A stretch of DNA of 43,068 bases from a virus (taxonomy: Duplodnaviria; Caudoviricetes), in IMG/VR virus record IMGVR_UViG_3300043173_000374, positions 1 through 43,068 of that record. One strand, 5' to 3'. The notes under the pieces are model-generated. The model saw nothing but the letters and a program-made list of their open reading frames with translations, did no database searches and was not told the origin of the DNA. Numbering within the stretch: the first letter of the stretch is position 1; every line of letters begins with the position of its first letter. The position numbers and the translations under genes were made by a program. Positions 1-40,433 of the stretch are shown in pieces.

Positions 1-127
1 CGGTATCTGTTAACCCCTGCGTCCTTACCCTTTAAATCCATAAATTTAAAATTAACTTCTTTCATCTCTGTGTAAAACTGAACGCCCTTTTTCATCTCTC
101 AATCCCTCCCGGTTAAAGTGTTTACCT
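1..127. repeat. Terminal overlap, identical to 42942-43068 (circular contig, unit length ~42,941 bp)
   Basis: The first 127 nt match the last 127 nt exactly; 127 is a common assembler k-mer size. Confidence 0.95.
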
Positions 128-140
128 CATCTTGTATATA

Positions 141-169
141 ACTATACCATTGTATATAAATAGTGTCAA
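141..169 (-). promoter_or_regulatory. Leftward sigma70-type promoter driving the early-gene array across the circular junction
   Basis: Minus strand reads TTGACA-17 nt-TATAGT with a TG extended -10. A TTGTATATAA direct repeat (132-141, 150-159) overlaps it. Confidence 0.75.
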
Positions 170-215
170 GCATAAATCTGCAAATAAATCACTTTTATTG
201 CATTATTTTTTGATA

Positions 216-262
216 CCACTACATCTTGTGCCACTATTTTCTTGACATACTATATGTAGTAT
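216..262. promoter_or_regulatory. Tandem NrdR-like boxes overlapping a rightward promoter (-35 TTGACA at 242-247)
   Basis: CCACTACATCTTGTGC (216-231) and ATACTATATGTAGTAT (247-262) resemble acaCwAtATaTwGtgt; their starts are 31 bp apart. Confidence 0.65.
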
Positions 263-278
263 GTTATTGCTTATCACT

Positions 279-710
279 ATGGGACATATACAGCCAGTTG
301 CAAAGATAGACTTAGATAAGGCCGTTAAATTAAAGTTCTTACACGGCAACACCGACGAGAATATTGCAAAGATATTCGGCACGTCACGCCAGGCAGTCAC
401 CAAACGACTCAAACCTTTCCATGACATACTTACGGATCAAGGCACGCTTGACACGTTCCGCGGCAACTATACAAACATATTAAGAAATTCCAGCTTTACG
501 TTAATGCAGGCCCTGCATGATCCTGATAAAATCGAAGCAGCAAGCCTCAACAATGTAGCTTACGCATTTAATACAGTAGCGAACCACTTAAGGCTGGAAG
601 AGAACAAGACAACCGACAATGTTGGTTTTCAAGGACTCGTTGCGCATATTCAAAAGAGCGCCGATGATTTGGACAATATGAAGGACGCACTCTTCGAAGC
701 TATGGACTAG
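279..710 (+). CDS. HTH protein, putative terminase small subunit (ORF track starts at 261; ATG 279 more likely)
   Basis: N-terminal HTH (TDENIAKIFGTSRQAVTKRL), helical C-terminus, first gene of the packaging operon upstream of terL. Confidence 0.6.
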   Translation: MGHIQPVAKIDLDKAVKLKFLHGNTDENIAKIFGTSRQAVTKRLKPFHDILTDQGTLDTFRGNYTNILRNSSFTLMQALHDPDKIEAASLNNVAYAFNTVANHLRLEENKTTDNVGFQGLVAHIQKSADDLDNMKDALFEAMD

Positions 711-713
711 CAG

Positions 714-755
714 CCTGTGGATAACCTGGCAGCAACCCCTGTGGATAACCTGGCA
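714..755. promoter_or_regulatory. Two perfect DnaA boxes within an 18-bp direct repeat
   Basis: CCTGTGGATAACCTGGCA at 714-731 and 738-755; TGTGGATAA is the reverse complement of TTATCCACA (716-724, 740-748). Confidence 0.7.
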
Positions 756-825
756 TGGGGGTGGGGCCATTAGCTAATAGCTCAATGTTATTAGCTACTT
801 AGCCCCGATACTTAATGTTTTACCT

Positions 826-853
826 AGGTCTGATAAGGTTTATTATGTTAACT
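826..853 (+). other. dif-like XerC/XerD recombination site
   Basis: AGGTCTGATAA-GGTTTA-TTATGTTAACT: 11-6-11 layout, XerD arm 10/11 identical to TTATGTTAAAT, XerC arm ending ATAA. Confidence 0.75.
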
Positions 854-880
854 CTTAGGTAAAGTAAGTAGCTTACTTAC

Positions 881-916
881 GGGGGTACGGGGGGAGGGGG
901 AGAACCGATTGGGGGG
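881..916 (+). other. G-rich tract (four runs of 5-6 G) with G-quadruplex potential; candidate packaging-region element
   Basis: GGGGG tac GGGGGG a GGGGG agaaccgatt GGGGGG. Confidence 0.5.
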
Positions 917-941
917 TGATTAAAGTTACTACCCTGTTCAG

Positions 942-960
942 GAAAAAATTTTACTAAAAG
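942..960 (+). repeat. 19-bp direct repeat, copy 1 (GAAAAAATTTTACTAAAAG)
   Basis: Identical to 1707-1725; both copies lie just upstream of an RBS and ATG. Confidence 0.8.
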
Positions 961-975
961 CCGAAAGGGGTAAGC

Positions 976-1242
976 ATGTCACTAAAAGCCATAAGCCATC
1001 TGCATAAAGCTGCGAACACAGGGCACAGAACTGTAAAGCAACTGCTCGAAGACGAACTTGAGCGCCATAACAACGCTGAGTGGCCAGAAGAGGAAAGATA
1101 CAACAAAGCGGTGATCCTCTACCTGGACGACACTAAAGAGGAATACCATACAGGATTTGCTCAAGCGGGAATGAAGATGTCGGAATGCGTGGCATTATGC
1201 AGTATAAGTGAAAGTCGATTTGAAAAAGAAATGAATTACTAA
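976..1242 (+). CDS. Hypothetical protein
   Basis: 88-aa ORF with AAGGGG RBS, co-oriented with the operon. Confidence 0.7.
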   Translation: MSLKAISHLHKAANTGHRTVKQLLEDELERHNNAEWPEEERYNKAVILYLDDTKEEYHTGFAQAGMKMSECVALCSISESRFEKEMNY

Positions 1243-1268
1243 AAGCGATTAGCGGAAAGAGCATTGTT

Positions 1269-1448
1269 ATGGGATTATTTGATATTTTAGAAGATGTAAT
1301 AGATGCGGCAATTGAGCTACCGGGCAAGGTGCTTGAGACTACAGTGGAGACTGTAGTGAGAATCCCTGAAGTGGGCATTAAAGCAGTAGAGGGGGTCGTA
1401 ACCGGTGTTGAAAAAGGTATTGAAAAGGTAGATAAGGCGATTAGCTAA
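1269..1448 (+). CDS. Small amphipathic hypothetical protein (59 aa, MGLFDILEDV...KVDKAIS)
   Basis: Read directly from sequence; below the ORF-track cutoff and fills the gap. Confidence 0.65.
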   Translation: MGLFDILEDVIDAAIELPGKVLETTVETVVRIPEVGIKAVEGVVTGVEKGIEKVDKAIS

Positions 1449-1452
1449 AAGC

Positions 1453-1600
1453 GCTTTGTGTATTGGCCGAGGCAGCTGTGCCTTGTAACAGGTGAGGTGT
1501 GCCAGTGAATCAGGTTTGACGCCCTGATATGATCGGCACTAAAAGGGAGTTGTCGCTCCAAGCGGTGGAATACCGCACTGCCTCGGCGAGTACATAAAGC
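1453..1600 (+). ncRNA. Multibranched structured RNA of unknown family
   Basis: Closing helix 1453-1475/1578-1600 (22 bp with G-U pairs, one mismatch) encloses four hairpins. Confidence 0.6.
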
Positions 1601-1611
1601 TAACAACCAAA

Positions 1612-1692
1612 AGCCCCATGCCCTAAGCTACCAGCTATACGCCACGAGCGTACAACTAAAGCGCAGAGCTAAGAGCAAGACGGGACGGGGCT
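1612..1692 (+). ncRNA. Second smaller multibranched RNA element
   Basis: AGCCCC/GGGGCT and CCC/GGG closing stems; internal TACGC/GCGTA and AGCT/AGCT hairpins. Confidence 0.4.
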
Positions 1693-1706
1693 ACACATTT
1701 TAAAAA

Positions 1707-1725
1707 GAAAAAATTTTACTAAAAG
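1707..1725 (+). repeat. 19-bp direct repeat, copy 2
   Basis: Identical to 942-960. Confidence 0.8.
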
Positions 1726-1733
1726 GGGATGAT

Positions 1734-1892
1734 ATGCCAAAGGGAAAGGGGTACGGTAGATCCAGAAGGGTAAAAGCACCAGCAAAGCCAAAGCCAAAGG
1801 TCAAGAAGGTGTCTTTGGGCGCGAAGGTGGGTAAGGGCGCGACCTCTGCCATAGCTAAACGTAAAGCCGCTATGAAGGCGTTAGGCTTTTAA
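1734..1892 (+). CDS. Small highly basic protein (52 aa, MPKGKGYGRSRRVK...), possibly DNA-condensing
   Basis: AGGGG RBS; Lys/Arg-rich with no acidic residues. Confidence 0.7.
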   Translation: MPKGKGYGRSRRVKAPAKPKPKVKKVSLGAKVGKGATSAIAKRKAAMKALGF

Positions 1893-1893
1893 G

Positions 1894-2055
1894 GTGTTCG
1901 ATTACAACCAAAGGCCAATAGACGATAAGGCCAGGGACAACTACGATAAAATCTTTAAGCATGGGGCGTACGCTAATAGCGTACAAAAAACCGAGGATAA
2001 GAAAGAGCAAGAACTATCCCCGGTAGAAAAGCCCATACGGAGGAGTAAAGCATGA
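1894..2055 (+). CDS. Small hypothetical protein (53 aa, GTG start, RDNYDKIF motif)
   Basis: Fills the gap; its stop overlaps the next start (ATGA). Confidence 0.5.
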   Translation: MFDYNQRPIDDKARDNYDKIFKHGAYANSVQKTEDKKEQELSPVEKPIRRSKA

Positions 2056-2465
2056 TGAAAAGAATTTTATTTACGCTCGTATTTATAGGCATGGCGCTTG
2101 GGGCTGTGCATCCTGCGACGGCTATTGAGGCGACGCTACTCAACCCGGCGAACCGCCCGGCGCATACGCAAGCCATTCCCATATTCACCAATGAATCGAC
2201 GATAGCTGCCAGTACGGTGTATGACATTGGCTTTCTGGCGTCGGAGCATACGTGGATGTTGGACTTTACGGGATCGCCGACGAGCGTGAGCATAGCCTTT
2301 CAGGGCACCATAGATGGGGCGAATTGGTTCGCCCTGGACACGTATACCGGGACGACAGACACGATGAGGCATGTAGTGAACAAGCCTGTGAGGAAGATAA
2401 GAGTGGACCTGGCCACGCTTGATACAGGGGATGTGACGGTAAAGACTATACATGGCGGGAACTAA
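2052..2465 (+). CDS. Signal-peptide-bearing beta-rich protein
   Basis: MKRILFTLVFIGMALGAVHPATA signal-like N-terminus; FQGTIDGANWF beta-sandwich-like motif; GGAGGAG RBS. Confidence 0.75.
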   Translation: MMKRILFTLVFIGMALGAVHPATAIEATLLNPANRPAHTQAIPIFTNESTIAASTVYDIGFLASEHTWMLDFTGSPTSVSIAFQGTIDGANWFALDTYTGTTDTMRHVVNKPVRKIRVDLATLDTGDVTVKTIHGGN

Positions 2466-4110
2466 AAAGAAACCGAAGTTCAGCAAGGAGGCGCTGGAGC
2501 AGCTACCTCCTGAGCTTAGAAAGGCGATGGTCAATCCTAACAGGACCAAAGAGGAAACCCTCGCCATCATAGCTAAGATCGAAGAGCTACAAGCTAAGAA
2601 CGCTGAGGTTTTAGAAGAAGCGATTAACGCGGACCCTTTCTGGTACTTTGAGCCCTCCACCGGGGATATACCGGAGAAGGGGAGGGAGCTGCTTCGTAAG
2701 TACCTGAAGGAAGAAGACATACCGCAGAAGCTATGCGGGCAGACCGACACCTTCGCGAGTGAAGCATCCAAGATAGGGGTCTTCGGAGGGAACCAGAGTG
2801 GTAAGAGCACGACCGGCGCGATAAACGCTTTCATCTGGACGACAGGGGAAGTGCCGGAGAAGCTGCAAGGCATTGTGCCTGAGAGCATGATCCCTAAGAA
2901 GTTCCCGCAGCATATAAGGGTAATAGCGGTAGACCACAAGCAGTTTAAGAATACGGTACTTGAAACGTACCGCAAGTGGGTGCCGAGAAAGTACCTGAAG
3001 GGTGGCAAGTGGAAGGACAGTTACTCAGCGGAGGACAGACTGTTAACGCTGTACGACCCTAAGACCAACCACCAGACGGTCAAAGGGACTATCGAGTTCA
3101 TGACCAACGCGCAGGACAAGGAGAGCTTTCAGGGGCCTCCTAAGCACGGCATGATCTACGACGAAGAACCAAGGTACGAGATATACAAAGAGAACCTGGC
3201 GCGTTTCACGACGGCTGATAAGATTAAGATTCTCTTTGGTATGACCCCCACTAAGGGGATGAGTTGGGTATCGGACCTGTTCATAAGCGACGATGAGATT
3301 GATAATGTAGAATCTTTTCAGCTTACGTCGGTTACAAACAGGAAAGCCGACCTCGATGTGCTCGATGAGATTTGCGCTGAGTATTCAGACGACTACGAAG
3401 CACTTAAAATGCGTTTGCTCGGCTCGTTCGTGTCGCTGTCCGGGCTTGTCTATGGAAAATTATTCGATAGGAGTTTACATGTCATTGAGCCGTTCCCGAT
3501 TACGAAAGACTACCTGTGCATCACTGGCATGGATCCCCACCTCGTTACTCCTTCTGCTATGGTCTTCTTGTTACTCGACAGGGAAGGTAATGCTTATTTG
3601 GATAGGAGCTACGCCCTCGACATGGACACCGACGAGATTAAAAAGCACTTCCATGAGGTAGTAGCTGATAATGGGTATCGTACAGGTTGGTCGGTGGCGG
3701 ATAAGTCTTCTAACTCGACGATAATAGCGTTTGGCGGCAGGAACATCTTTAAGGAATTATCCAGCGGGCCGGGCGCCATTCCCGCCATGAGAACATCGGA
3801 AAAGTACGAAGGTTCTATCAAGGCAGGCGTGGATGATATCAAGAAGAGGCTTAAAGTTAACGAGAAATCAGGGAAGCCGAGATTTTTTATAGTAAATCGC
3901 CCTGAGAACAAAGATATCATCCATAGTTTTAGGACTTTAGAGCGAGATACTTATGCGAATGAGGAAGTCCAAGGGCCAAAAGATAGAATCAAGGAAGGAA
4001 AGCATCACAAACACGCATCATTGAGGTACATTTTTCAGTATCCGCTTAATTGGTATCCTGAAATAGACTACATACCGCAGCCAGAGTATCTTGACGAGGC
4101 TTGTGGTTAA
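2452..4110 (+). CDS. terL: Terminase large subunit
   Basis: Walker A GGNQSGKST, Walker B MIYDEEP, motif III GMTP, nuclease GMDPH; lies upstream of the portal. Confidence 0.92.
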   Translation: MAGTKKKPKFSKEALEQLPPELRKAMVNPNRTKEETLAIIAKIEELQAKNAEVLEEAINADPFWYFEPSTGDIPEKGRELLRKYLKEEDIPQKLCGQTDTFASEASKIGVFGGNQSGKSTTGAINAFIWTTGEVPEKLQGIVPESMIPKKFPQHIRVIAVDHKQFKNTVLETYRKWVPRKYLKGGKWKDSYSAEDRLLTLYDPKTNHQTVKGTIEFMTNAQDKESFQGPPKHGMIYDEEPRYEIYKENLARFTTADKIKILFGMTPTKGMSWVSDLFISDDEIDNVESFQLTSVTNRKADLDVLDEICAEYSDDYEALKMRLLGSFVSLSGLVYGKLFDRSLHVIEPFPITKDYLCITGMDPHLVTPSAMVFLLLDREGNAYLDRSYALDMDTDEIKKHFHEVVADNGYRTGWSVADKSSNSTIIAFGGRNIFKELSSGPGAIPAMRTSEKYEGSIKAGVDDIKKRLKVNEKSGKPRFFIVNRPENKDIIHSFRTLERDTYANEEVQGPKDRIKEGKHHKHASLRYIFQYPLNWYPEIDYIPQPEYLDEACG

Positions 4111-4321: not shown

Positions 4322-6193
4322 ATGGCTACTAAAATAGAAAAAGAACCTACATTAACACCTGATTTTCTGATAAAACACGCGCAAGATGCTTTTGAGAAGT
4401 CAAAATCGTGGCGGGAAGAGGAGATAGTACCCAGATGGAAGAAGTCTAACGACCTCTACAACGCTGTTTTTGATGTTAAAGAGAGATCGAAGTCCGATGT
4501 GCTGAAAAGCCAGGGGCGTTTGTTTGTCCCTAAGACGTACTCGCACTTACAGCGCATCCTGGTCGATATTATGGAGACTTTTTTCTTCGACCCGGAAGAA
4601 ATTGTCAATATCACCGCCTGGAAGTCCATACCGGCGGAGACTCGGCTGATCGTAAAGGCTATACTCAACTATAGGCTCAACGGGCATCCTATTAACTTCT
4701 ATCAGGAAGCTTTTGAGGCATGTCTTGACGCACTGAAGAACAAAGTAGGCATTCTTAAGGTATATCCTGAGACAAATCTGAAAAAACCTGTAGATGGAGA
4801 GTCTTGGCGGCCTATCATTGAGGCCGTGCCCTATGAGGATGTGTTTTTCGATGCGGAGGCCACTTGGAAAGACTACTATAAGTTCCCCATAACCCACCGC
4901 ATGAGGCGAAGCCTTGACTATCTCAAGAAAAGAGGGTATAAGAACCTCGAATTGCTTGAGAGTGCAACGCACATGGACCCTACAGGTGGCGATGAGATCA
5001 AAGAACAGCGCTCAGAAGATCAGGGCTCGCCTTTCAACGCAAATACAGACAGTACGCCTCTGAACGAGGGGGTGTTCGTGTACGAGACATGGACATTCCT
5101 CGATGTAGACGGCGACGGGCTTCTTGAGAGCTGTTCGTACCTAAGTGGTGGGGATGCACAAGGTCCGAAGGTTTTAATCAGGGATGTTGAAAAGAATGAC
5201 TTACCTTATGACAATGACAGGGCACCATTTGTCGTTGGTTCGGCGTTTCCAGAGCCCCATAAGATGTATGGGAAGGATTTACCGGAAGTTGTAGAGGATC
5301 TTCAGAAAGAAATCAACGCTATCCGTAATCAGAACAGGGAAGCGGTAGCGATAGGCATTAGAAAGCCGCTTCTCGTTAACCGGGGGGCAAATGTTGATCT
5401 TATGAGCTTGGTGAACAGGCGCATAGGGGGCGTCGTAATGGGGGATGACATATCACCGTCCTCTATTCGTGAATTGGAAACAGGCGGGCTTACGGCGGGG
5501 TCTATACAAGAACAGGCCAGAAACGATGCCGACTTCTTCGAGGCCACTTCTCAGTCTCCAACGCAATTCGGGGTATCTACGCCGGGGGAAGAGAGCGCGA
5601 CAGAGAACAGCAACATCCAAGCCAACGCCAATAAGAAAGTTAGCATGATAATAGCCAACCTGGCGCAGACCATGTTTATCCCGGCGTTCAATATGCTCTT
5701 ACAACTTGAGCAAAAACATGAAACAGATAGTTTCATCGAGAAAGTTACGGGCAGAATGCTTGGTATGGCTTTTGAGAAGACGGGGGATGAAGGTGCAGAG
5801 GATGTTGAAGTTATTAAAGGGTTTCCGAAGAAAATAATTCAAGGAGATTTTGAGCTATCAGCTAACACCGGAGTCAGTAAGCAACAACAGTTAAATAAGT
5901 TCTTCCTGCTCATCGACAGGGGCAACATGGTTAACCAGACAACAGCGCAGATGGTACAGACAGGGGTTATAGACCCGACAAAGGCTGAATACTTCGATCT
6001 GATGGCTATGTTCAGAAGGATACTGCCGATTGTCGGTGAGAAGAATGTAGATGATTTCGTATTGCCCGCTCAAGCGCCTCCGCCCCCGCCTTCAGGCGAA
6101 GGGCCCGGTATTCCTTCTCAAAGGGCACCAGCGGCGAGTGAGGGCAATCTAATGGCTGAAATTATGAACAGGAACCCGGAAGGAGGGGCGTAG
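4322..6193 (+). CDS. Portal protein
   Basis: 623 aa after terL; helical, with YGKDLPEVVEDLQKEINAIRNQ and a Pro-rich tail typical of podoviral portals. Confidence 0.88.
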   Translation: MATKIEKEPTLTPDFLIKHAQDAFEKSKSWREEEIVPRWKKSNDLYNAVFDVKERSKSDVLKSQGRLFVPKTYSHLQRILVDIMETFFFDPEEIVNITAWKSIPAETRLIVKAILNYRLNGHPINFYQEAFEACLDALKNKVGILKVYPETNLKKPVDGESWRPIIEAVPYEDVFFDAEATWKDYYKFPITHRMRRSLDYLKKRGYKNLELLESATHMDPTGGDEIKEQRSEDQGSPFNANTDSTPLNEGVFVYETWTFLDVDGDGLLESCSYLSGGDAQGPKVLIRDVEKNDLPYDNDRAPFVVGSAFPEPHKMYGKDLPEVVEDLQKEINAIRNQNREAVAIGIRKPLLVNRGANVDLMSLVNRRIGGVVMGDDISPSSIRELETGGLTAGSIQEQARNDADFFEATSQSPTQFGVSTPGEESATENSNIQANANKKVSMIIANLAQTMFIPAFNMLLQLEQKHETDSFIEKVTGRMLGMAFEKTGDEGAEDVEVIKGFPKKIIQGDFELSANTGVSKQQQLNKFFLLIDRGNMVNQTTAQMVQTGVIDPTKAEYFDLMAMFRRILPIVGEKNVDDFVLPAQAPPPPPSGEGPGIPSQRAPAASEGNLMAEIMNRNPEGGA

Positions 6194-8758: not shown

Positions 8759-9553
8759 ATGAAAAGGGAACCAAGGAAGAGAACCGGCAGAAGAGATGTG
8801 AAGAGGAGAGCGGTACAAGAGGCACCAAAGCCCGTAGTTGAAGGCTCGGAAGCTTCGGTTGAGGAAGAGAAAGCACCGGCGCCAAAAGTGCCTGTCAAAA
8901 AGTCAAAAGAGGCGGACCCGTTTTTAGACGAGATATACGTCAAGAAGAGGATCGACATGGATTTGGACCATAGAAAGTATGTTGGTCCTAAAGATAAATT
9001 CGAAGTCGTAGGTAAGCATCAATTCGAGGTGATGATAGAATCCGGGCTCAAAGCTTCAAGCTCATTGCTAGACATAGGCTGTGGCGCTATGCGAGGCGGT
9101 AAGTTCTTCCTGGAGTTTCTTGATGAAGGAAACTATTGTGGCATTGACCCAAACAAGGCCCTTCTTAGGAAGGGGCTGTTTGCGGAAGTTGAAGAGGAAG
9201 TTGCAAGAAGCAAAAAACCTTCTTTTAAACACAACGACAATTTCAATCTGTCCATATTTGACAGGGAATTTGACTTCATAGTAGCGCAGGCTATTTTCGC
9301 CCATGCAGCAGAAGATCAGATTGTTGCTTGCTTGAAGTCTGCACATGACGTACTGGCACCGGGAGGGAAGTTTGTTTTCAACTACTTTCTCGGCGAGAGT
9401 GACTATGCAGGCAAAGAGTGGGTGTACCCATGCTGCACCAAGTATACCGAGCTAAAGATGCTTGAGTTCGTAAGAAAGGCGGGTTTTGATATCGAAAGTA
9501 ATGTTTTTAAACACCCGGTCGGGCTGGTATGGATAGTAGCAAGAAAACAATAG
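8759..9553 (+). CDS. Class I SAM-dependent methyltransferase with charged N-terminal extension
   Basis: LLDIGCGAMRGG motif I, FDFIVAQAIFAH, VLAPGGKF. Confidence 0.88.
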   Translation: MKREPRKRTGRRDVKRRAVQEAPKPVVEGSEASVEEEKAPAPKVPVKKSKEADPFLDEIYVKKRIDMDLDHRKYVGPKDKFEVVGKHQFEVMIESGLKASSSLLDIGCGAMRGGKFFLEFLDEGNYCGIDPNKALLRKGLFAEVEEEVARSKKPSFKHNDNFNLSIFDREFDFIVAQAIFAHAAEDQIVACLKSAHDVLAPGGKFVFNYFLGESDYAGKEWVYPCCTKYTELKMLEFVRKAGFDIESNVFKHPVGLVWIVARKQ

Positions 9554-10101
9554 TCGTTCTCGGCTGCTATCGCGGAGGCACCTCGATGGTGGCAGGAGTG
9601 CTTCGCTGCCTCGGCATCTTTATGGGACACCGTTTTGGCGAAGAAGCCGGGGGTAGCAATCATGAGGACCTGGACTTTCAACAGTCCGGACCACCAAGAC
9701 TGAGAAAGCTCATCGATGGGCGTAATGCCGAACTAGACGTATGGGGGTGGAAAGACCCCGGCGCTATTTTTAACATCGAAGAGGTATGCAAAGATTTGAG
9801 AAATCCGTACTTCATTACTGTTTTCAGAGATCCGTATGCCATAGCTCTCAGCGAAGAGAAGCATAACCAAAGAGACATCGCTACCGGCCTGAGAGTGGCC
9901 GTAGGGCATCTGAGTAAGCTTGCGTACTTCAAGGTCAGTTATCCACAGTATAAGAACATGGCTGTGAGCTATGAGAAGGCTATTGCTAACAAGACCAAAA
10001 CAGTCGATGACCTGATAATGTACCTCGGCATATCAGTATCGTCGGACCAAAGGCAAAAGGCTATTGATTTTATACAGCCGGAAAGGTATGTAAAACTATG
10101 A
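9529..10101 (+). CDS. Sulfotransferase-family protein
   Basis: IVVLGCYRGGTS (5'-PSB-like loop), WGWKDP, VFRDP, VSYE. Confidence 0.8.
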   Translation: MDSSKKTIVVLGCYRGGTSMVAGVLRCLGIFMGHRFGEEAGGSNHEDLDFQQSGPPRLRKLIDGRNAELDVWGWKDPGAIFNIEEVCKDLRNPYFITVFRDPYAIALSEEKHNQRDIATGLRVAVGHLSKLAYFKVSYPQYKNMAVSYEKAIANKTKTVDDLIMYLGISVSSDQRQKAIDFIQPERYVKL

Positions 10102-11198
10102 ACATCACTTATTTCGGAGCAGACGACGGAGCTTGCGGGTATTACCGTGCGCAGCTTCCTATGAGTAAGTTAGCAGAGAAAAAAGCATCTAAGATCTTTA
10201 AGATCGAGAAAGCAAGTACGATTGAACAACTTGATTTCGGGCTCACAAATGGTGAGGTTATCTTTTGTCCACATCTTTCTGATGAGCGTATCATAAGCGT
10301 GATGAAAGAAGTGCAGAAAGACGGCAAGAAGATGGTCGTTGATTTTGATGATGATATATTCAACATATCTCCACTGTCGCCGCATTACGAAGAGTGCGGT
10401 ATTGAGAATGTACAAATTGGAACCCCCGACGGGAAGGCGATACCCCTTTGGGTAGATGGCGAGAAAGGTTTTGATATTCAGCGGAACAAAGACCACCTTG
10501 AAAGGATCAAAGAAGCTATATCTATGGCTGATATGGTAACAACCACTACGGACCTCCTGGCGGATCGATTCAGAGAGTTCAATGATAAAGTAGAGGTGCT
10601 ACCAAACTGTGTTGATACTGACCTCTGGCAGCCCCTTGACATAAAGCGTAAGAATGACGAGATCCGTCTGTATTGGTCGGGTGGTAGCAGTCATTACGAA
10701 GATTGGCTTCTTCTGCAAGATGTATTGCCTGAGATCATGCATAAGTATAAGAACGTGAAGCTGGTCTTAATGGGGCACCACTTTAAAGGCACCACGAAAG
10801 GCATCCCGGAGAAAAGAATCGAGTACCACCCTTGGGTTTCTATGGCGGCGTACCCGTACAAGTCGGCTATTCTCAATCCAGATATAGCGATCATACCTTT
10901 GCAGGATAATGCTTTCAACAGGCATAAGTCAGCTATTAAATGGACAGAGATGGGCGCCTTGGGAGTGCCTTCGGTTGTGAGCTATGTCAGCCCTTACAAA
11001 GAGGTAGACAATGGTGAGAATGCGGTATTCATAGAGGCCAATGATCCCGAAGGATGGATAGCGGGCATCTCTATGCTCATAGAGGACAGCATTTTGCGAA
11101 ATAAGATCGGAGGAGAGGCAAGACAAACCGTTTTCAGTAAATTTGACATTAACAAGCGCTGTTACGATTGGGTACGCGCTTATAGGAGTATACGCTAA
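10098..11198 (+). CDS. Glycosyltransferase (GT-B fold, GT4-like)
   Basis: YYRAQLP, VDFDDD, VLPNCVD and DIAIIPL..NAFNRHKSAIKWTEMGALGVPSVVS. Confidence 0.9.
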   Translation: MNITYFGADDGACGYYRAQLPMSKLAEKKASKIFKIEKASTIEQLDFGLTNGEVIFCPHLSDERIISVMKEVQKDGKKMVVDFDDDIFNISPLSPHYEECGIENVQIGTPDGKAIPLWVDGEKGFDIQRNKDHLERIKEAISMADMVTTTTDLLADRFREFNDKVEVLPNCVDTDLWQPLDIKRKNDEIRLYWSGGSSHYEDWLLLQDVLPEIMHKYKNVKLVLMGHHFKGTTKGIPEKRIEYHPWVSMAAYPYKSAILNPDIAIIPLQDNAFNRHKSAIKWTEMGALGVPSVVSYVSPYKEVDNGENAVFIEANDPEGWIAGISMLIEDSILRNKIGGEARQTVFSKFDINKRCYDWVRAYRSIR

Positions 11199-37276: not shown

Positions 37277-39762
37277 GTAATATCCAAAAGCTAATAGATA
37301 ATGGCTATTACATCATCCCGATCAAGAAAGGCGAAAAGCGACCGGCTGTTAGCAAATGGCAGGACTTGAGGATTACTGATGCCTCTGAGATCAAGTCTTT
37401 TACTGACAAGGGCTGCGGTATAGGTATCCTTACCGGTGTCGGGGAACATCCTGTCTGTGGTGTGGACATCGATTCTATGGATGAAGGGCTGGTGGATGAT
37501 TTCGTAGATTGGTTTGAGAATGAAGTATACGTAACAATTTCTAGAGAAGGCAAACCTCCTAAGCGTTTGCTGATGTGTCAAACGGAAAATCCTTATGCTA
37601 AAATTGTAAGTCGAAAATTTGAAGATTCTGAAGGCAATACACACCAGCTTGAGCTTTTAGGGACTGGCCAACAGTTCGTTGCCTATGGCGTTCATCCCGC
37701 TACTGGCGGGAAATACCAATGGGGCGATAGTGGTACTCCGACTGATACTCCTCTTAAGGAACTACCTCCCGTACATGAGATTGCTCTGAAAGGATTAGTT
37801 AACTATTTTGAACACCTTGCTCTCGATCGGGGATACACCCCTGTAACATCGGCCAAGACGGCATCAACCAAGCCGTCACCAACAGGCGATGAGGCCCTGG
37901 ACGTTCTGATGAGCTACGAGCCCGGAGTCGGTATGTCTAATGGCGACGCCGAGGCTTTGCTTGTGGCTCTCGACTGTGAGGACTACGACTTATGGATCAG
38001 GGTCGGCATGGCGCTGCACCATGAGTTTAGCGGCAGCGACGATGGCTTGGAGCTATGGGACGGATGGAGCAGTCAGGGTCTTACTTATAAGGGTAGGGGT
38101 GAGCTTACAGACCGTTGGCGAAGCTTCAACGCTGTGGGCCGGACCCCCATCACCATGCGGTCCGTACTGCATGAGGTGGAGGTGGTTAAGAAGGAAGAGG
38201 TCATAGCTGTCAAGAGGGATACCGCCGGGAAGATGTACGCCACGGTGAGAGCTTGTAGCGATCAGTTCACCCTTCTCGACCATATAGCAGGAGAGCTTGG
38301 CTCTATGGCTAATAGCGATGCGGGCCTGGTCACTGAGGCTGAGAAGCTTATCAAGCAGCGCTATAAGGAGCTGACTGATGGCGCGGTGGCTATTGGCGCT
38401 GTGCGTAAGGCTATGCGCTCAGGGCTTGGAGCTTCAAAGCTTCCGGTTAAAGCGGATGGTGTGCTTAGTTGGGCCAATCCGTGGGTCTATGTCGCCGGAG
38501 ACAATCAGTTCTTCAACACTGACACCGGCGTTGTATTCGACCCTGCCGGTTTTCGTGGTAAGTTCGGCAGTGAGATTATGGGTGAAGAGAGCGAAGGCAT
38601 GGACGTGTCCAGATGGGCGCTTGATAATCGGCTCATCCCTAAAGCTGATCGCGCTATCTACATGCCAGGCGCCGGTCGCCTATTCAAGATGGATGGAGTT
38701 GACTGCGTTAATACATATTGCCAGAGTGATGTTTGGGACCCTGAAGAAGAGAGAGCTTTGGCTAAGAACTTAGGGCATTGCACTGAGGGTTATCCAGAAG
38801 GTGACAGCGCTGAGATCTTCAAGCAACATATCCAACTGCTGATAGGTGGTGGCACATGGACCAGAGAGGCGCAGCTCTTCACCAACTTCTTACGATATAT
38901 TATTGAGAGGCCAGGTCGTAAGCTCACATGGGCCACTCTGCTTCAAGGGTCCTATGGTGATGGCAAGAGCGAACCGATTACAAGGCTTATGGGCGCCTTG
39001 CTTGGGGCGCACAATACTAATGTTATCCAGGCGCAGACCATTGAGGGGAGTATCTTCAATGATTGGGCTGAGGGGCACTGCTTTGCTATTATCGAGGAGA
39101 TAAAACTTCATGGCCATAATCGCTATGATATTCTCAATAGGATGAACGCGATCATCTCCAATGATATCGTCGAGATACACCCGAAAGGGTCGAGGACTTA
39201 CTCCACCAAGAATACAGGTAACTACTACATCACCACGAACTTTACGGACGCCGTACCTATTGTCAGCCAGGACAGGAGGTACTTCGTACTGTTTAGCAAG
39301 TTCCCGGAAGAGTACACCAACAATACGGCGTACTTTGACGCGCTGTTCAAGGCCCTTGGTGATCCTGAAGGGGTCAAAGCTGTTGGCAGATGGCTTCTTA
39401 GTGTGTCCTACCATGAGGACTTCAAGCCAAACGGCCACGCGCCCCACACTCTTGATAAGGATAGTATAGTGGAACTCTCCAGGGATATATGTGTTGATAT
39501 GATTGAAGAGTCTTTAGAAGATAGTGATAACCTTTATTTTTGCGAGGACTACATTATATACGGCCCTTTCCACGATTACATAAGCCATATTGACGGGCAA
39601 GTGACAAACCGGATGTTGAATAAATACGTCCAGGATTTAGGTTACAAATTTGTGCAGCGCCATCTCATAAATGGCAAAAGAGAACGGATTTGGGTGCGAG
39701 GTAAGACGGCAACTTACGACGATTTTGCAAAAAAATACGAGTTGAGAAAACTGATTTACTAA
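37273..39762 (+). CDS. Primase-polymerase / PriCT_2 / SF3-like helicase fusion (GTG start at 37273 probable)
   Basis: GYYIIPIKKGEKRP, GVDID, VAYGVHP; DYDLWIRVGMAL..WDGWS; GSYGDGKS, IIEEI, TTN. Confidence 0.9.
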   Translation: MSNIQKLIDNGYYIIPIKKGEKRPAVSKWQDLRITDASEIKSFTDKGCGIGILTGVGEHPVCGVDIDSMDEGLVDDFVDWFENEVYVTISREGKPPKRLLMCQTENPYAKIVSRKFEDSEGNTHQLELLGTGQQFVAYGVHPATGGKYQWGDSGTPTDTPLKELPPVHEIALKGLVNYFEHLALDRGYTPVTSAKTASTKPSPTGDEALDVLMSYEPGVGMSNGDAEALLVALDCEDYDLWIRVGMALHHEFSGSDDGLELWDGWSSQGLTYKGRGELTDRWRSFNAVGRTPITMRSVLHEVEVVKKEEVIAVKRDTAGKMYATVRACSDQFTLLDHIAGELGSMANSDAGLVTEAEKLIKQRYKELTDGAVAIGAVRKAMRSGLGASKLPVKADGVLSWANPWVYVAGDNQFFNTDTGVVFDPAGFRGKFGSEIMGEESEGMDVSRWALDNRLIPKADRAIYMPGAGRLFKMDGVDCVNTYCQSDVWDPEEERALAKNLGHCTEGYPEGDSAEIFKQHIQLLIGGGTWTREAQLFTNFLRYIIERPGRKLTWATLLQGSYGDGKSEPITRLMGALLGAHNTNVIQAQTIEGSIFNDWAEGHCFAIIEEIKLHGHNRYDILNRMNAIISNDIVEIHPKGSRTYSTKNTGNYYITTNFTDAVPIVSQDRRYFVLFSKFPEEYTNNTAYFDALFKALGDPEGVKAVGRWLLSVSYHEDFKPNGHAPHTLDKDSIVELSRDICVDMIEESLEDSDNLYFCEDYIIYGPFHDYISHIDGQVTNRMLNKYVQDLGYKFVQRHLINGKRERIWVRGKTATYDDFAKKYELRKLIY

Positions 39763-39764
39763 AA

Positions 39765-40256
39765 CTTGCAAAGAAATGCAGATTTCTAAAACGGATTTGG
39801 GGAGTGAAAAACCCGAATCCGTTTTTTTTGCAGAGTTTTTGCAAGTTTTATTTTCTGCATTTCTTTGCAGGTTTTTCTGCAATTCTTTGCAGTTCTGCAT
39901 TTCTTTGCGAGTTTTCTGCAATTCTTTGCAGTTTTACCACGGTGGATCGGCCCGATTAGGTCGAAAAGGGGCTAAAAAGGGGTCTAATCGGGCCGATTCG
40001 CTAATCGGGCAGCTAATCGGGCCACACTTAAGTTATTGTTTTATATATCTTATTCTTTATACTAACCCGATTACCCGATTAAAGTAAGTATATAGAGAGT
40101 ATAGAAAATAGAAAACGCGTTTTTCTTTCCTTCTCTGAGCTGAACGACTTGGAAACTACTCGGGTCGGGCAATCGGGCCGATGGCGAAAAACCTGCAAGA
40201 AAATGCAGAAACAGTTTTTTAAGCCATTTCTGCATTTTCTGCAATTCTTTGCAAGT
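39765..40256. repeat. Iterated, symmetric origin-like region
   Basis: Four tandem TTCTGCAWTTCTTTGC copies at 39853-39931 with related copies near 39766 and 40192-40255; AATCGGGC/CCCGATT repeats flank an AT-rich core. Confidence 0.7.
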
Positions 40257-40433
40257 TTATATTTCGGTGTTTAATTGGTCGTCTTCGAACATATCATTTT
40301 CGTATGGTAAGATGGATTCATTCAGAACTTTCCCCTGGTCGATTTGAATGGTAATTGTCACACAACCTGGAAGCAGCCAGAAAATGAAAATGATTAAGAG
40401 GATGGCGCCAATAGTTTTGATTATGTCTATCAT
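40257..40433 (-). CDS. Small lipoprotein (58 aa)
   Basis: MIDIIKTIGAILLIIFIFWLLPGC lipobox; acidic tail. Confidence 0.55.
   Translation of the reverse strand: MIDIIKTIGAILLIIFIFWLLPGCVTITIQIDQGKVLNESILPYENDMFEDDQLNTEI

Follow-up and report, generated by a model that had tools for sequence, protein, structure and literature searches.

Why does a tailed phage that encodes no recognizable recombinase carry, beside its terminase genes, a site built like the dif sites of bacterial chromosomes, and what might XerC and XerD, two recombinases of the host, do there? The window analysed here, that is, the whole stretch of 43,068 bases, is recorded as a complete, circular virus genome whose ends overlap by 127 nt, and an identical 42,971-nt single contig (depth 37, zero differences) is present in a marine-sediment run that may be its source run. 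Searches with PHROGs and Pfam identified genes for a large terminase (terL), an SU10-type portal, a capsid and an adaptor, together with replication-type genes for a family A polymerase, an SNF2 helicase and a primase-polymerase, and a Cro-like gene; the phage is podovirus-like. The terL gene (2452 to 4110, plus strand; phrog_2, E 6e-21; PF03237, E 9e-8) lies 1.6 kb 3′ of the dif-type site.

An earlier note on this DNA had recognized no tyrosine or serine recombinase gene, and our searches agree: none was found among the 68 ORFs of the window with PHROGs and Pfam, or in six-frame searches of the window with PF00589 and PF00239 at E ≤ 1. The window also yielded no resolvase and no cI-like repressor, with no cI-like gene opposite the Cro-like gene, and its 68 ORFs gave no XafT-like or FtsK-gamma Pfam match; no phage-coded activator was found. 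Directly 3′ of the primase gene, direct and inverted TTCTGCA..TTTGCAG repeats occupy positions 39761 to 40265, and this region is likely the replication origin. Methyltransferase, sulfotransferase and glycosyltransferase genes are embedded in the capsid operon (8759 to 11198), where they possibly serve virion or surface modification.

The dif-type core and its surroundings

The core comprises an XerC-type arm, AGGTCTGATAA (826 to 836), a 6-bp spacer, GGTTTA (837 to 842), and an XerD-type arm, TTATGTTAACT (843 to 853), all read on the plus strand in the 11-6-11 layout of XerC/XerD sites. The two 11-bp arms around the 6-bp spacer fit the dif consensus, the placement is intergenic (between ORF 261–710 and ORF 976–1242), and the core is a single copy. 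It is the sole match to ATAA-N6-TTATGTTAAMT in the window genome, even when two mismatches are allowed, and a dif matrix trained on 26 sites, the window's own arms among them, gives it a score of 33.8, with 10.8 for the runner-up place. The 22 arm bases are expected by chance about 1e-8 times in the window genome, and the pattern GTCTGATAA-N6-TTATGTTAAMT was found at 61 viral loci, as compared with 0 for the reversed control.

Related contigs from other sequencing runs were also compared with the window; in these comparisons, differences that fall within some 30 bases of the end of a contig are not listed. In an independent run, a contig spanning 715–870 has six differences, none listed within 826–839; two contigs spanning 841–950 keep the XerD arm unchanged; and a contig spanning 771–855 shows 13 differences, one of which changes T825 in the flank. 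A contig from a third run matches the window at 824–856 only, with two differences and dissimilar flanks. Among relatives, the arms are kept while flanks and spacers diverge. This retention, together with the 61 viral loci against none in the control and the minute chance expectation, makes it barely credible that the core is a chance match or a neutral relic of captured host DNA, even though several relatives lack the site. The XerCD dif-type core at 826–853 is thus confirmed as a genuine feature, as the earlier note had claimed.

The earlier note had drawn the site more widely, from 821 to 861, so as to include the inverted pair TACCTA (821–826) and TAGGTA (856–861). The pair is present, but its standing as a conserved part of the site did not hold up: its centre is 1.5 bp off that of the core, a 6-bp flank repeat of this kind is absent from all 45 other viral sites and all 18 family sites, and T825 is changed in the related contig described above. 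The flanks are probably incidental, even if chance alone would yield such a repeat in just about 1% of cases.

The gene immediately upstream (261 to 710, plus strand) encodes a helix-turn-helix protein with eight relatives at 59–76%, and its stop codon lies 115 bp 5′ of the core. Homologues of this ORF, 27 in the terL family, are found upstream of terL. Five of the 30 upstream ORFs and homologues match terS PHROGs; matches among the homologues are to PHROGs 2538, 2414 and 309, with a best E of 3.5e-6. The window protein itself reaches only E 0.022 against phrog_141, matched none of the solved terS structures, and has Atlas matches to viral helix-turn-helix clusters only. By its position and the weak profile matches, ORF 261–710 is likely the small terminase, and we refer to it as the terS-like gene.

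Between this gene and the core, two TGTGGATAA boxes, which we take to be the DnaA-box consensus, form a short direct repeat at 716 to 748 (716–724 and 740–748, plus strand). The repeat is also covered by related contigs in two other runs. Similar boxes directly 3′ of the terS-like gene were found in 3 of 24 family loci, with three boxes in L369 (after 5380) and one each in L308 (after 4216) and L313 (after 4522). Around the viral sites found by pattern, DnaA boxes show no enrichment (1 of 45). Downstream of the core, the segment at 881 to 960 (plus strand) contains G-runs, TTAAAGTTACTAC and an A-tract; it is conserved in L188, which is without the dif core, and a G or C run lies within 250–300 bp of 15 of the 18 family sites. 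We infer that 881–960 is a candidate for the start of packaging or for an end of the genome. At 891, a KOPS-like GGGGAGGG was considered and set aside as too weak, since such a motif occurs at 8 of 45 viral sites and the shuffle maximum is also 8.

No plus-strand sigma-70-like promoter was found 5′ of ORF 261; a strong one on the minus strand (169–141) faces small leftward genes. Between the dif-type site and terL, the heptamer CTAAAAG occurs six times in 770 bp (954–1725), out of ten copies on the plus strand of the genome. Several copies stand directly 5′ of small ORFs, and similar motifs follow the G-run in L183–L186; CTAAAAG is a possible late promoter or regulatory site. The earlier note had supposed that integration at the site would silence terL and the structural genes by parting them from terS and its promoter; should the CTAAAAG motifs be promoters, terL would be independent of that promoter. 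Intergenic inverted arms of 23 nt around 102 nt (1453–1600) are skipped in related contigs. No Rfam match was found in window positions 1–2500, and no tRNA was found near the dif-type site.

Recurrence beside terminase genes and divergence of the spacer

The terL family consists of 80 viral loci collected by a terL alignment search that was independent of the dif pattern (a single-protein terL search returned no relative), and 48 of them include 2,500 bases upstream. A strong dif-type site, scoring above 19 where the reversed control reached a maximum of 15.8, is present in 11 of the 80 loci, 10 of them distinct. All 11 strong sites lie 277–3886 bp upstream of terL, though upstream DNA makes up 35% of the loci, and both orientations relative to terL occur. 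Counted by the terS-like gene with a second matrix, whose training set held 11 of the 13 positive sites, 13 of 24 non-redundant genes have a dif-type site between −126 and +96 bp from the end of the ORF; the other 11 lack one. The arms vary across the family in ways resembling different hosts. L188, the closest IMG/VR relative (terL 58%), has no dif core, although it retains the terS-like gene as well as a DnaA-type box and the G-run motif; five distant terS-like loci are likewise without a dif-type site. The site is a family trait, common but optional.

One family record (L328/G609) has both a site, 96 bp after its terS match, and a full 328-aa tyrosine integrase; the XerD arm in this record (GTATGTTAAAA) is degenerate and may be undergoing decay. 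Across the family, PF00589 was matched in one of the 18 records with a site and in one of the 13 others; many of these records are fragments, and the counts give no sign that the dif-type site replaces an integrase. Just after position 5821, L187 has a different inverted repeat (GTACATAG ... CTATGTAAC) following its terS-like gene, and L369 has an XerD-type arm with a degenerate XerC side. Metagenome contigs gave no match to the terS alignment or to the exact 28-mer, and GenBank phages gave no informative match for the site or a close terL. Relatives found through the capsid (42–46% identity) showed chance-level site matches with the terS region mostly missing, and were left uncounted.

The link to terminase genes is not restricted to this family. 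Among 45 non-redundant viral loci found by the dif pattern, 26 have a PHROG terL match and 6 more a portal match in a scan of the 214 nearest ORFs. Because short IMG/VR fragments are enriched for genes of the terL and portal type, large records, mostly of unrelated phages, were tested separately: terL lies within 5 kb of the site in 12 of 14, where 3.6 are expected (P = 3.5e-6; 4 of 18 records were dropped for having no terL match, and two terL positions came from ORF calls). PF00589 was matched in 0 of 50 dif-bearing viral records and in 0 of 10 at 90% completeness or more, figures with no base rate for comparison. In L009, L010 and L060, a dif-like site lies just 3′ of terL beside HNH genes, and in L009 a partial second terL copy follows the site.

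Exact IHF boxes, scored with what we assume to be the IHF consensus motif, occur within 80 bp of the site at 10 of 45 viral loci (shuffle mean 0.6, maximum 3) versus 0 of 117 chromosomal ones, and all 11 of these boxes lie 7–24 bp from the viral core, on either side. In the window there is no exact IHF box, the best candidate (789–801) having two mismatches. Boxes so close to viral cores, the DnaA-type boxes just upstream in the window, near-perfect arms around an unconstrained spacer and a free orientation relative to terL would all suit XerCD binding without productive recombination, as a roadblock, a decoy, a packaging-initiation architecture with IHF or DnaA, or an FtsK stop. We regard this explanation as improbable: the 6-bp spacing is kept and the end positions of the spacer are biased like those of chromosomal sites, which fits cleavage (in part a circular argument, as the searches themselves were built on a 6-bp spacer), and the window is among the loci without an exact IHF box.

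The spacer itself is highly variable. The 47 viral 28-mers contain 46 distinct spacers, and 19 terL-family sites contain 18. L043 and L096 (terL 99.6%, DNA 94%) have identical arms and differ at three of six spacer positions, the XerC-side TGG being kept and the XerD side varying; between L038 and L057 (92.5%), the spacer difference is on the XerC side. Spacers change faster than the surrounding DNA. In a blunt test against 39 pooled chromosomal spacers, those of the phages lie no nearer than column-shuffled spacers, whichever half is considered, and the family sites of L318 and L350 have spacers identical to chromosomal ones.

Chromosomal counterparts and the search for an integrated copy

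The earlier note had called for a comparison with taxon-specific dif sequences, and the arms prove to fit delta-proteobacterial dif. They agree with the delta-proteobacterial rows printed in PMC2731167, where the XerC-type arm matches the printed Myxococcus xanthus dif at 10 of 11 positions and the XerD-type arm matches that of Desulfovibrio vulgaris at 11 of 11. The closest chromosomal site found (L393, class Desulfobacteria) is identical to the phage site at 26 of 28 positions, and most of the 20 loci fetched are identical at 25 of 28. The phage spacer GGTTTA is absent from all chromosomal sites examined. It is one base off GGTATA, which serves as spacer of the site in 24 genomes out of 301 of Desulfobacteria, with the whole XerC-side half identical, and AGGTCTGATAA-GGTATA-TTATGTAAACT is a candidate cognate dif. 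Only 10 of 64 phage spacers come as close as one base to a common Desulfobacteria spacer. Within one host species, according to PMC2731167, spacers are well conserved.

The exact AGGTCTGATAA arm is found in single-copy chromosomal sites of Desulfobacter vibrioformis, Desulfobacula and others; it occurs in Desulfobacter, Desulfobacula, Deferrisomatales, Nitrospira, some Acidobacteriota and other MAGs, and in 5 of 5 Desulfobacterota genomes checked the exact match is the only one per genome, as expected of dif. The pattern GGTCTGATAA-N6-TTATGTTAACT matches at least 120 loci in bacterial genomes, mostly Vicinamibacterales among the matches listed. The sequence likeness points to a Desulfobacterota-type bacterium as the likely host, and the best match of 26 of 28 in Desulfobacteria fits the marine-sediment source. 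Hence the site does help with host identification, as had been suggested, to the extent of a Desulfobacterota type; it does not single out one host, because the arms are shared with Acidobacteriota, Nitrospira and other MAGs.

Some bacterial genomes contain more than one such site. In a single-contig Desulfobacterales chromosome (L273, L303), a second dif-type site with spacer TAGGCC (G104:C1:4255164) lies 1.8 Mb from the first; it was rejected as the edge of a tailed prophage, since the island of some 12 kb that it borders, rich in repeats and low in GC, encodes an integrase, and no tailed-phage genes were found there. A MAG labelled Rickettsiales (G600, the genome of L141) has 18 dif-pattern matches; the spacers of most are related (GAGGCG, CAGGCG), and some of the matches form inverted pairs on a single contig, an arrangement resembling pdif modules.

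If the phage entered host chromosomes at dif, junctions or prophages bounded by dif half-sites might be expected, and the earlier note had proposed looking for both. In contigs of the presumed source run, no joint or loose end was seen at the dif-type site, and contigs of two other runs showed no joint there either. Beside 140 genomic dif-type loci (79 with at least 5 kb), terL or portal genes were found at 3, and all 3 align to viral contigs on both flanks of the site; no integrated copy was found beside 20 further genomic sites. The 120 terL homologues among the matches listed are all on contigs of at most 48,299 bases, and none was found in 401 Desulfobacterota genomes, in a search that had no positive control. 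Four Desulfobacterota genomes with a capsid homologue were rejected as prophage candidates, as the fetched stretches contain no dif-like site and dif-type sites are on other contigs or about 140 kb away. Little weight attaches to this absence of prophages: the source may be rich in particles, MAGs are broken at dif, and no positive control accompanied the 401-genome search.

These results bear on integration, as in an IMEX. The site would then be an attP, and the circular phage would enter dif of a Desulfobacteria host with spacer GGTATA through host XerCD, probably XerC-first and finished by replication as in VGJ-phi, giving a prophage that runs from near the packaging start to terS. The 26/28 identity to L393 with an identical XerC-side spacer half, the retention of the XerC-side TGG in L043 and L096, and the fully chromosomal spacers of L318 and L350 would all fit, as would the lack of an integrase in the window and of PF00589 matches in the 50 dif-bearing viral records. 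There is precedent as well: the short-tailed phage LME-1 enters dif through host XerL (PMC9765430, PMC12407071), and VGJ-phi and gokushoviruses integrate despite a spacer mismatch (PMC5357621, PMC7062461). Nevertheless, we consider integration rather unlikely, as no junction, prophage, repressor or activator was found, the XerC side of the spacer changes too (L038/L057), L328 has its own integrase besides the site, and the close link to terS in unrelated phages is not accounted for by integration.

A plasmid prophage that used the site only for dimer resolution in lysogeny, like psi or cer, is a very remote prospect. The circular assembly, the primase-polymerase with adjacent repeats, a weak ParG match in the window (E 0.004) and relatives that are phage-sized contigs in MAGs are consistent with it. 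However, no ParA, ParB or cI match was found in the window, and such a role leaves the position beside terS unexplained.

Proposed use of the site on the phage's own DNA

We propose, with about an even chance of being right, that host XerCD recombines phage genome with phage genome near the predicted packaging end, rather than integrating it. Host XerCD would bind and cut the core. If, as the terS-like gene and the G-runs suggest, the virion end lies near them, terminal redundancy would give the genome two cores in direct repeat, and XerCD could then circularize the DNA after injection or resolve the multimers made in replication into monomers. The exchange might be XerC-first, with the junction finished by replication, or might proceed with the FtsK of the host; PMC9226527 describes a pathway of each kind. 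Since exchange between copies of the same phage always has matching spacers, the spacer could change freely, and by diverging from the host's it would keep accidental integration in check.

Self-recombination is favoured by the tie of the site to terS and terL, the drifting spacers, the co-occurrence of site and integrase in L328, and the lack of an integrated copy and of cI, XafT and FtsK-gamma matches. Against it stand the 5/6 match of GGTTTA to GGTATA, the chromosomal spacers of L318 and L350, the optional nature of the site, and the fact that L328 is a single record with a degenerate arm. Thus, of the two XerCD uses offered in the earlier note, resolution of multimers, with circularization, fits better, whereas integration found no support in any junction or prophage, with drifting spacers and one relative that has a site and an integrase. 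The two uses are not mutually exclusive.

More tentatively, and with some doubt, we suggest that many tailed phages, of unrelated terminase families and with hosts of different phyla, have independently placed a private-spacer dif mimic, often flanked by IHF boxes, at their packaging end. XerCD would circularize or resolve their genomes there without the risk of integration, so that the site would serve lytic phages as a host-enzyme loxP with arms that barcode the host. If a dif mimic beside terS does act on the phage's own DNA, apparently lytic tailed phages would gain a host-dependent circularization or multimer-resolution step, xerC, xerD and ftsK would become candidate host-range factors, and a phage dif would not always be a sign of lysogeny. 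The arms may also offer a host-prediction signal for uncultured phages, pointing here towards Desulfobacterota-type hosts.

The proposed scheme would do with host enzymes what P1 Cre/loxP and plasmid cer/psi do. As in P1, the site is proposed to act self-on-self near the packaging start, but P1 encodes Cre and the window would use a host recombinase. P1 Cre/loxP circularizes the genome from its terminal redundancy near pac. It also resolves multimers (PMC10999674); the accessible text of PMC11769102 does not describe loxP circularization. Plasmid cer and psi likewise use host XerCD on the element's own DNA, but they depend on some 180 bp of accessory DNA beside the XerC arm, together with PepA and either ArgR or ArcA (PMC5357621), whereas many viral sites have IHF boxes instead. 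The phage site shares its 11-6-11 layout, intergenic position, single copy and 26 of 28 bases with chromosomal dif of delta-proteobacteria and Desulfobacterota, on which XerC, XerD and FtsK act (PMC2731167); unlike these, it adjoins terS and its spacer varies between close relatives.

Among elements that exploit dif, the Legionella phage LME-1 is likewise a short-tailed double-stranded DNA phage with a dif mimic used by a host recombinase. However, LME-1 depends on a single XerL, has a 22-bp att identical to the host site and was found integrated (PMC9765430, PMC12407071), whereas the window has a two-arm site of the XerCD type, a spacer mismatch and no integrated copy that we could find. VGJ-phi, enterogokushoviruses and dif-type double jelly-roll prophages (PMC5357621, PMC7062461, PMC12715192) similarly have no integrase, one dif-like site and a spacer unlike the host's, but these are non-tailed elements with small genomes, shown integration and no terminase link in the accessible descriptions. 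The window resembles IMEX in having no recombinase of its own. It differs from the CTX-phi type, in which two inverted dif-like sites form a hairpin attP, in having one site only, and from the TLC-phi type, with its degenerate XerD arm and XafT activator, in having an intact XerD arm and no XafT-like match. The oral-phage paper 10.1101/633727 concerns an inovirus. In the openly searchable literature, published phage use of dif (filamentous phages, microviruses, double jelly-roll viruses and LME-1) is always for integration, and we found there neither a dif mimic tied to terS and used by a phage on its own DNA nor IHF boxes at such sites.
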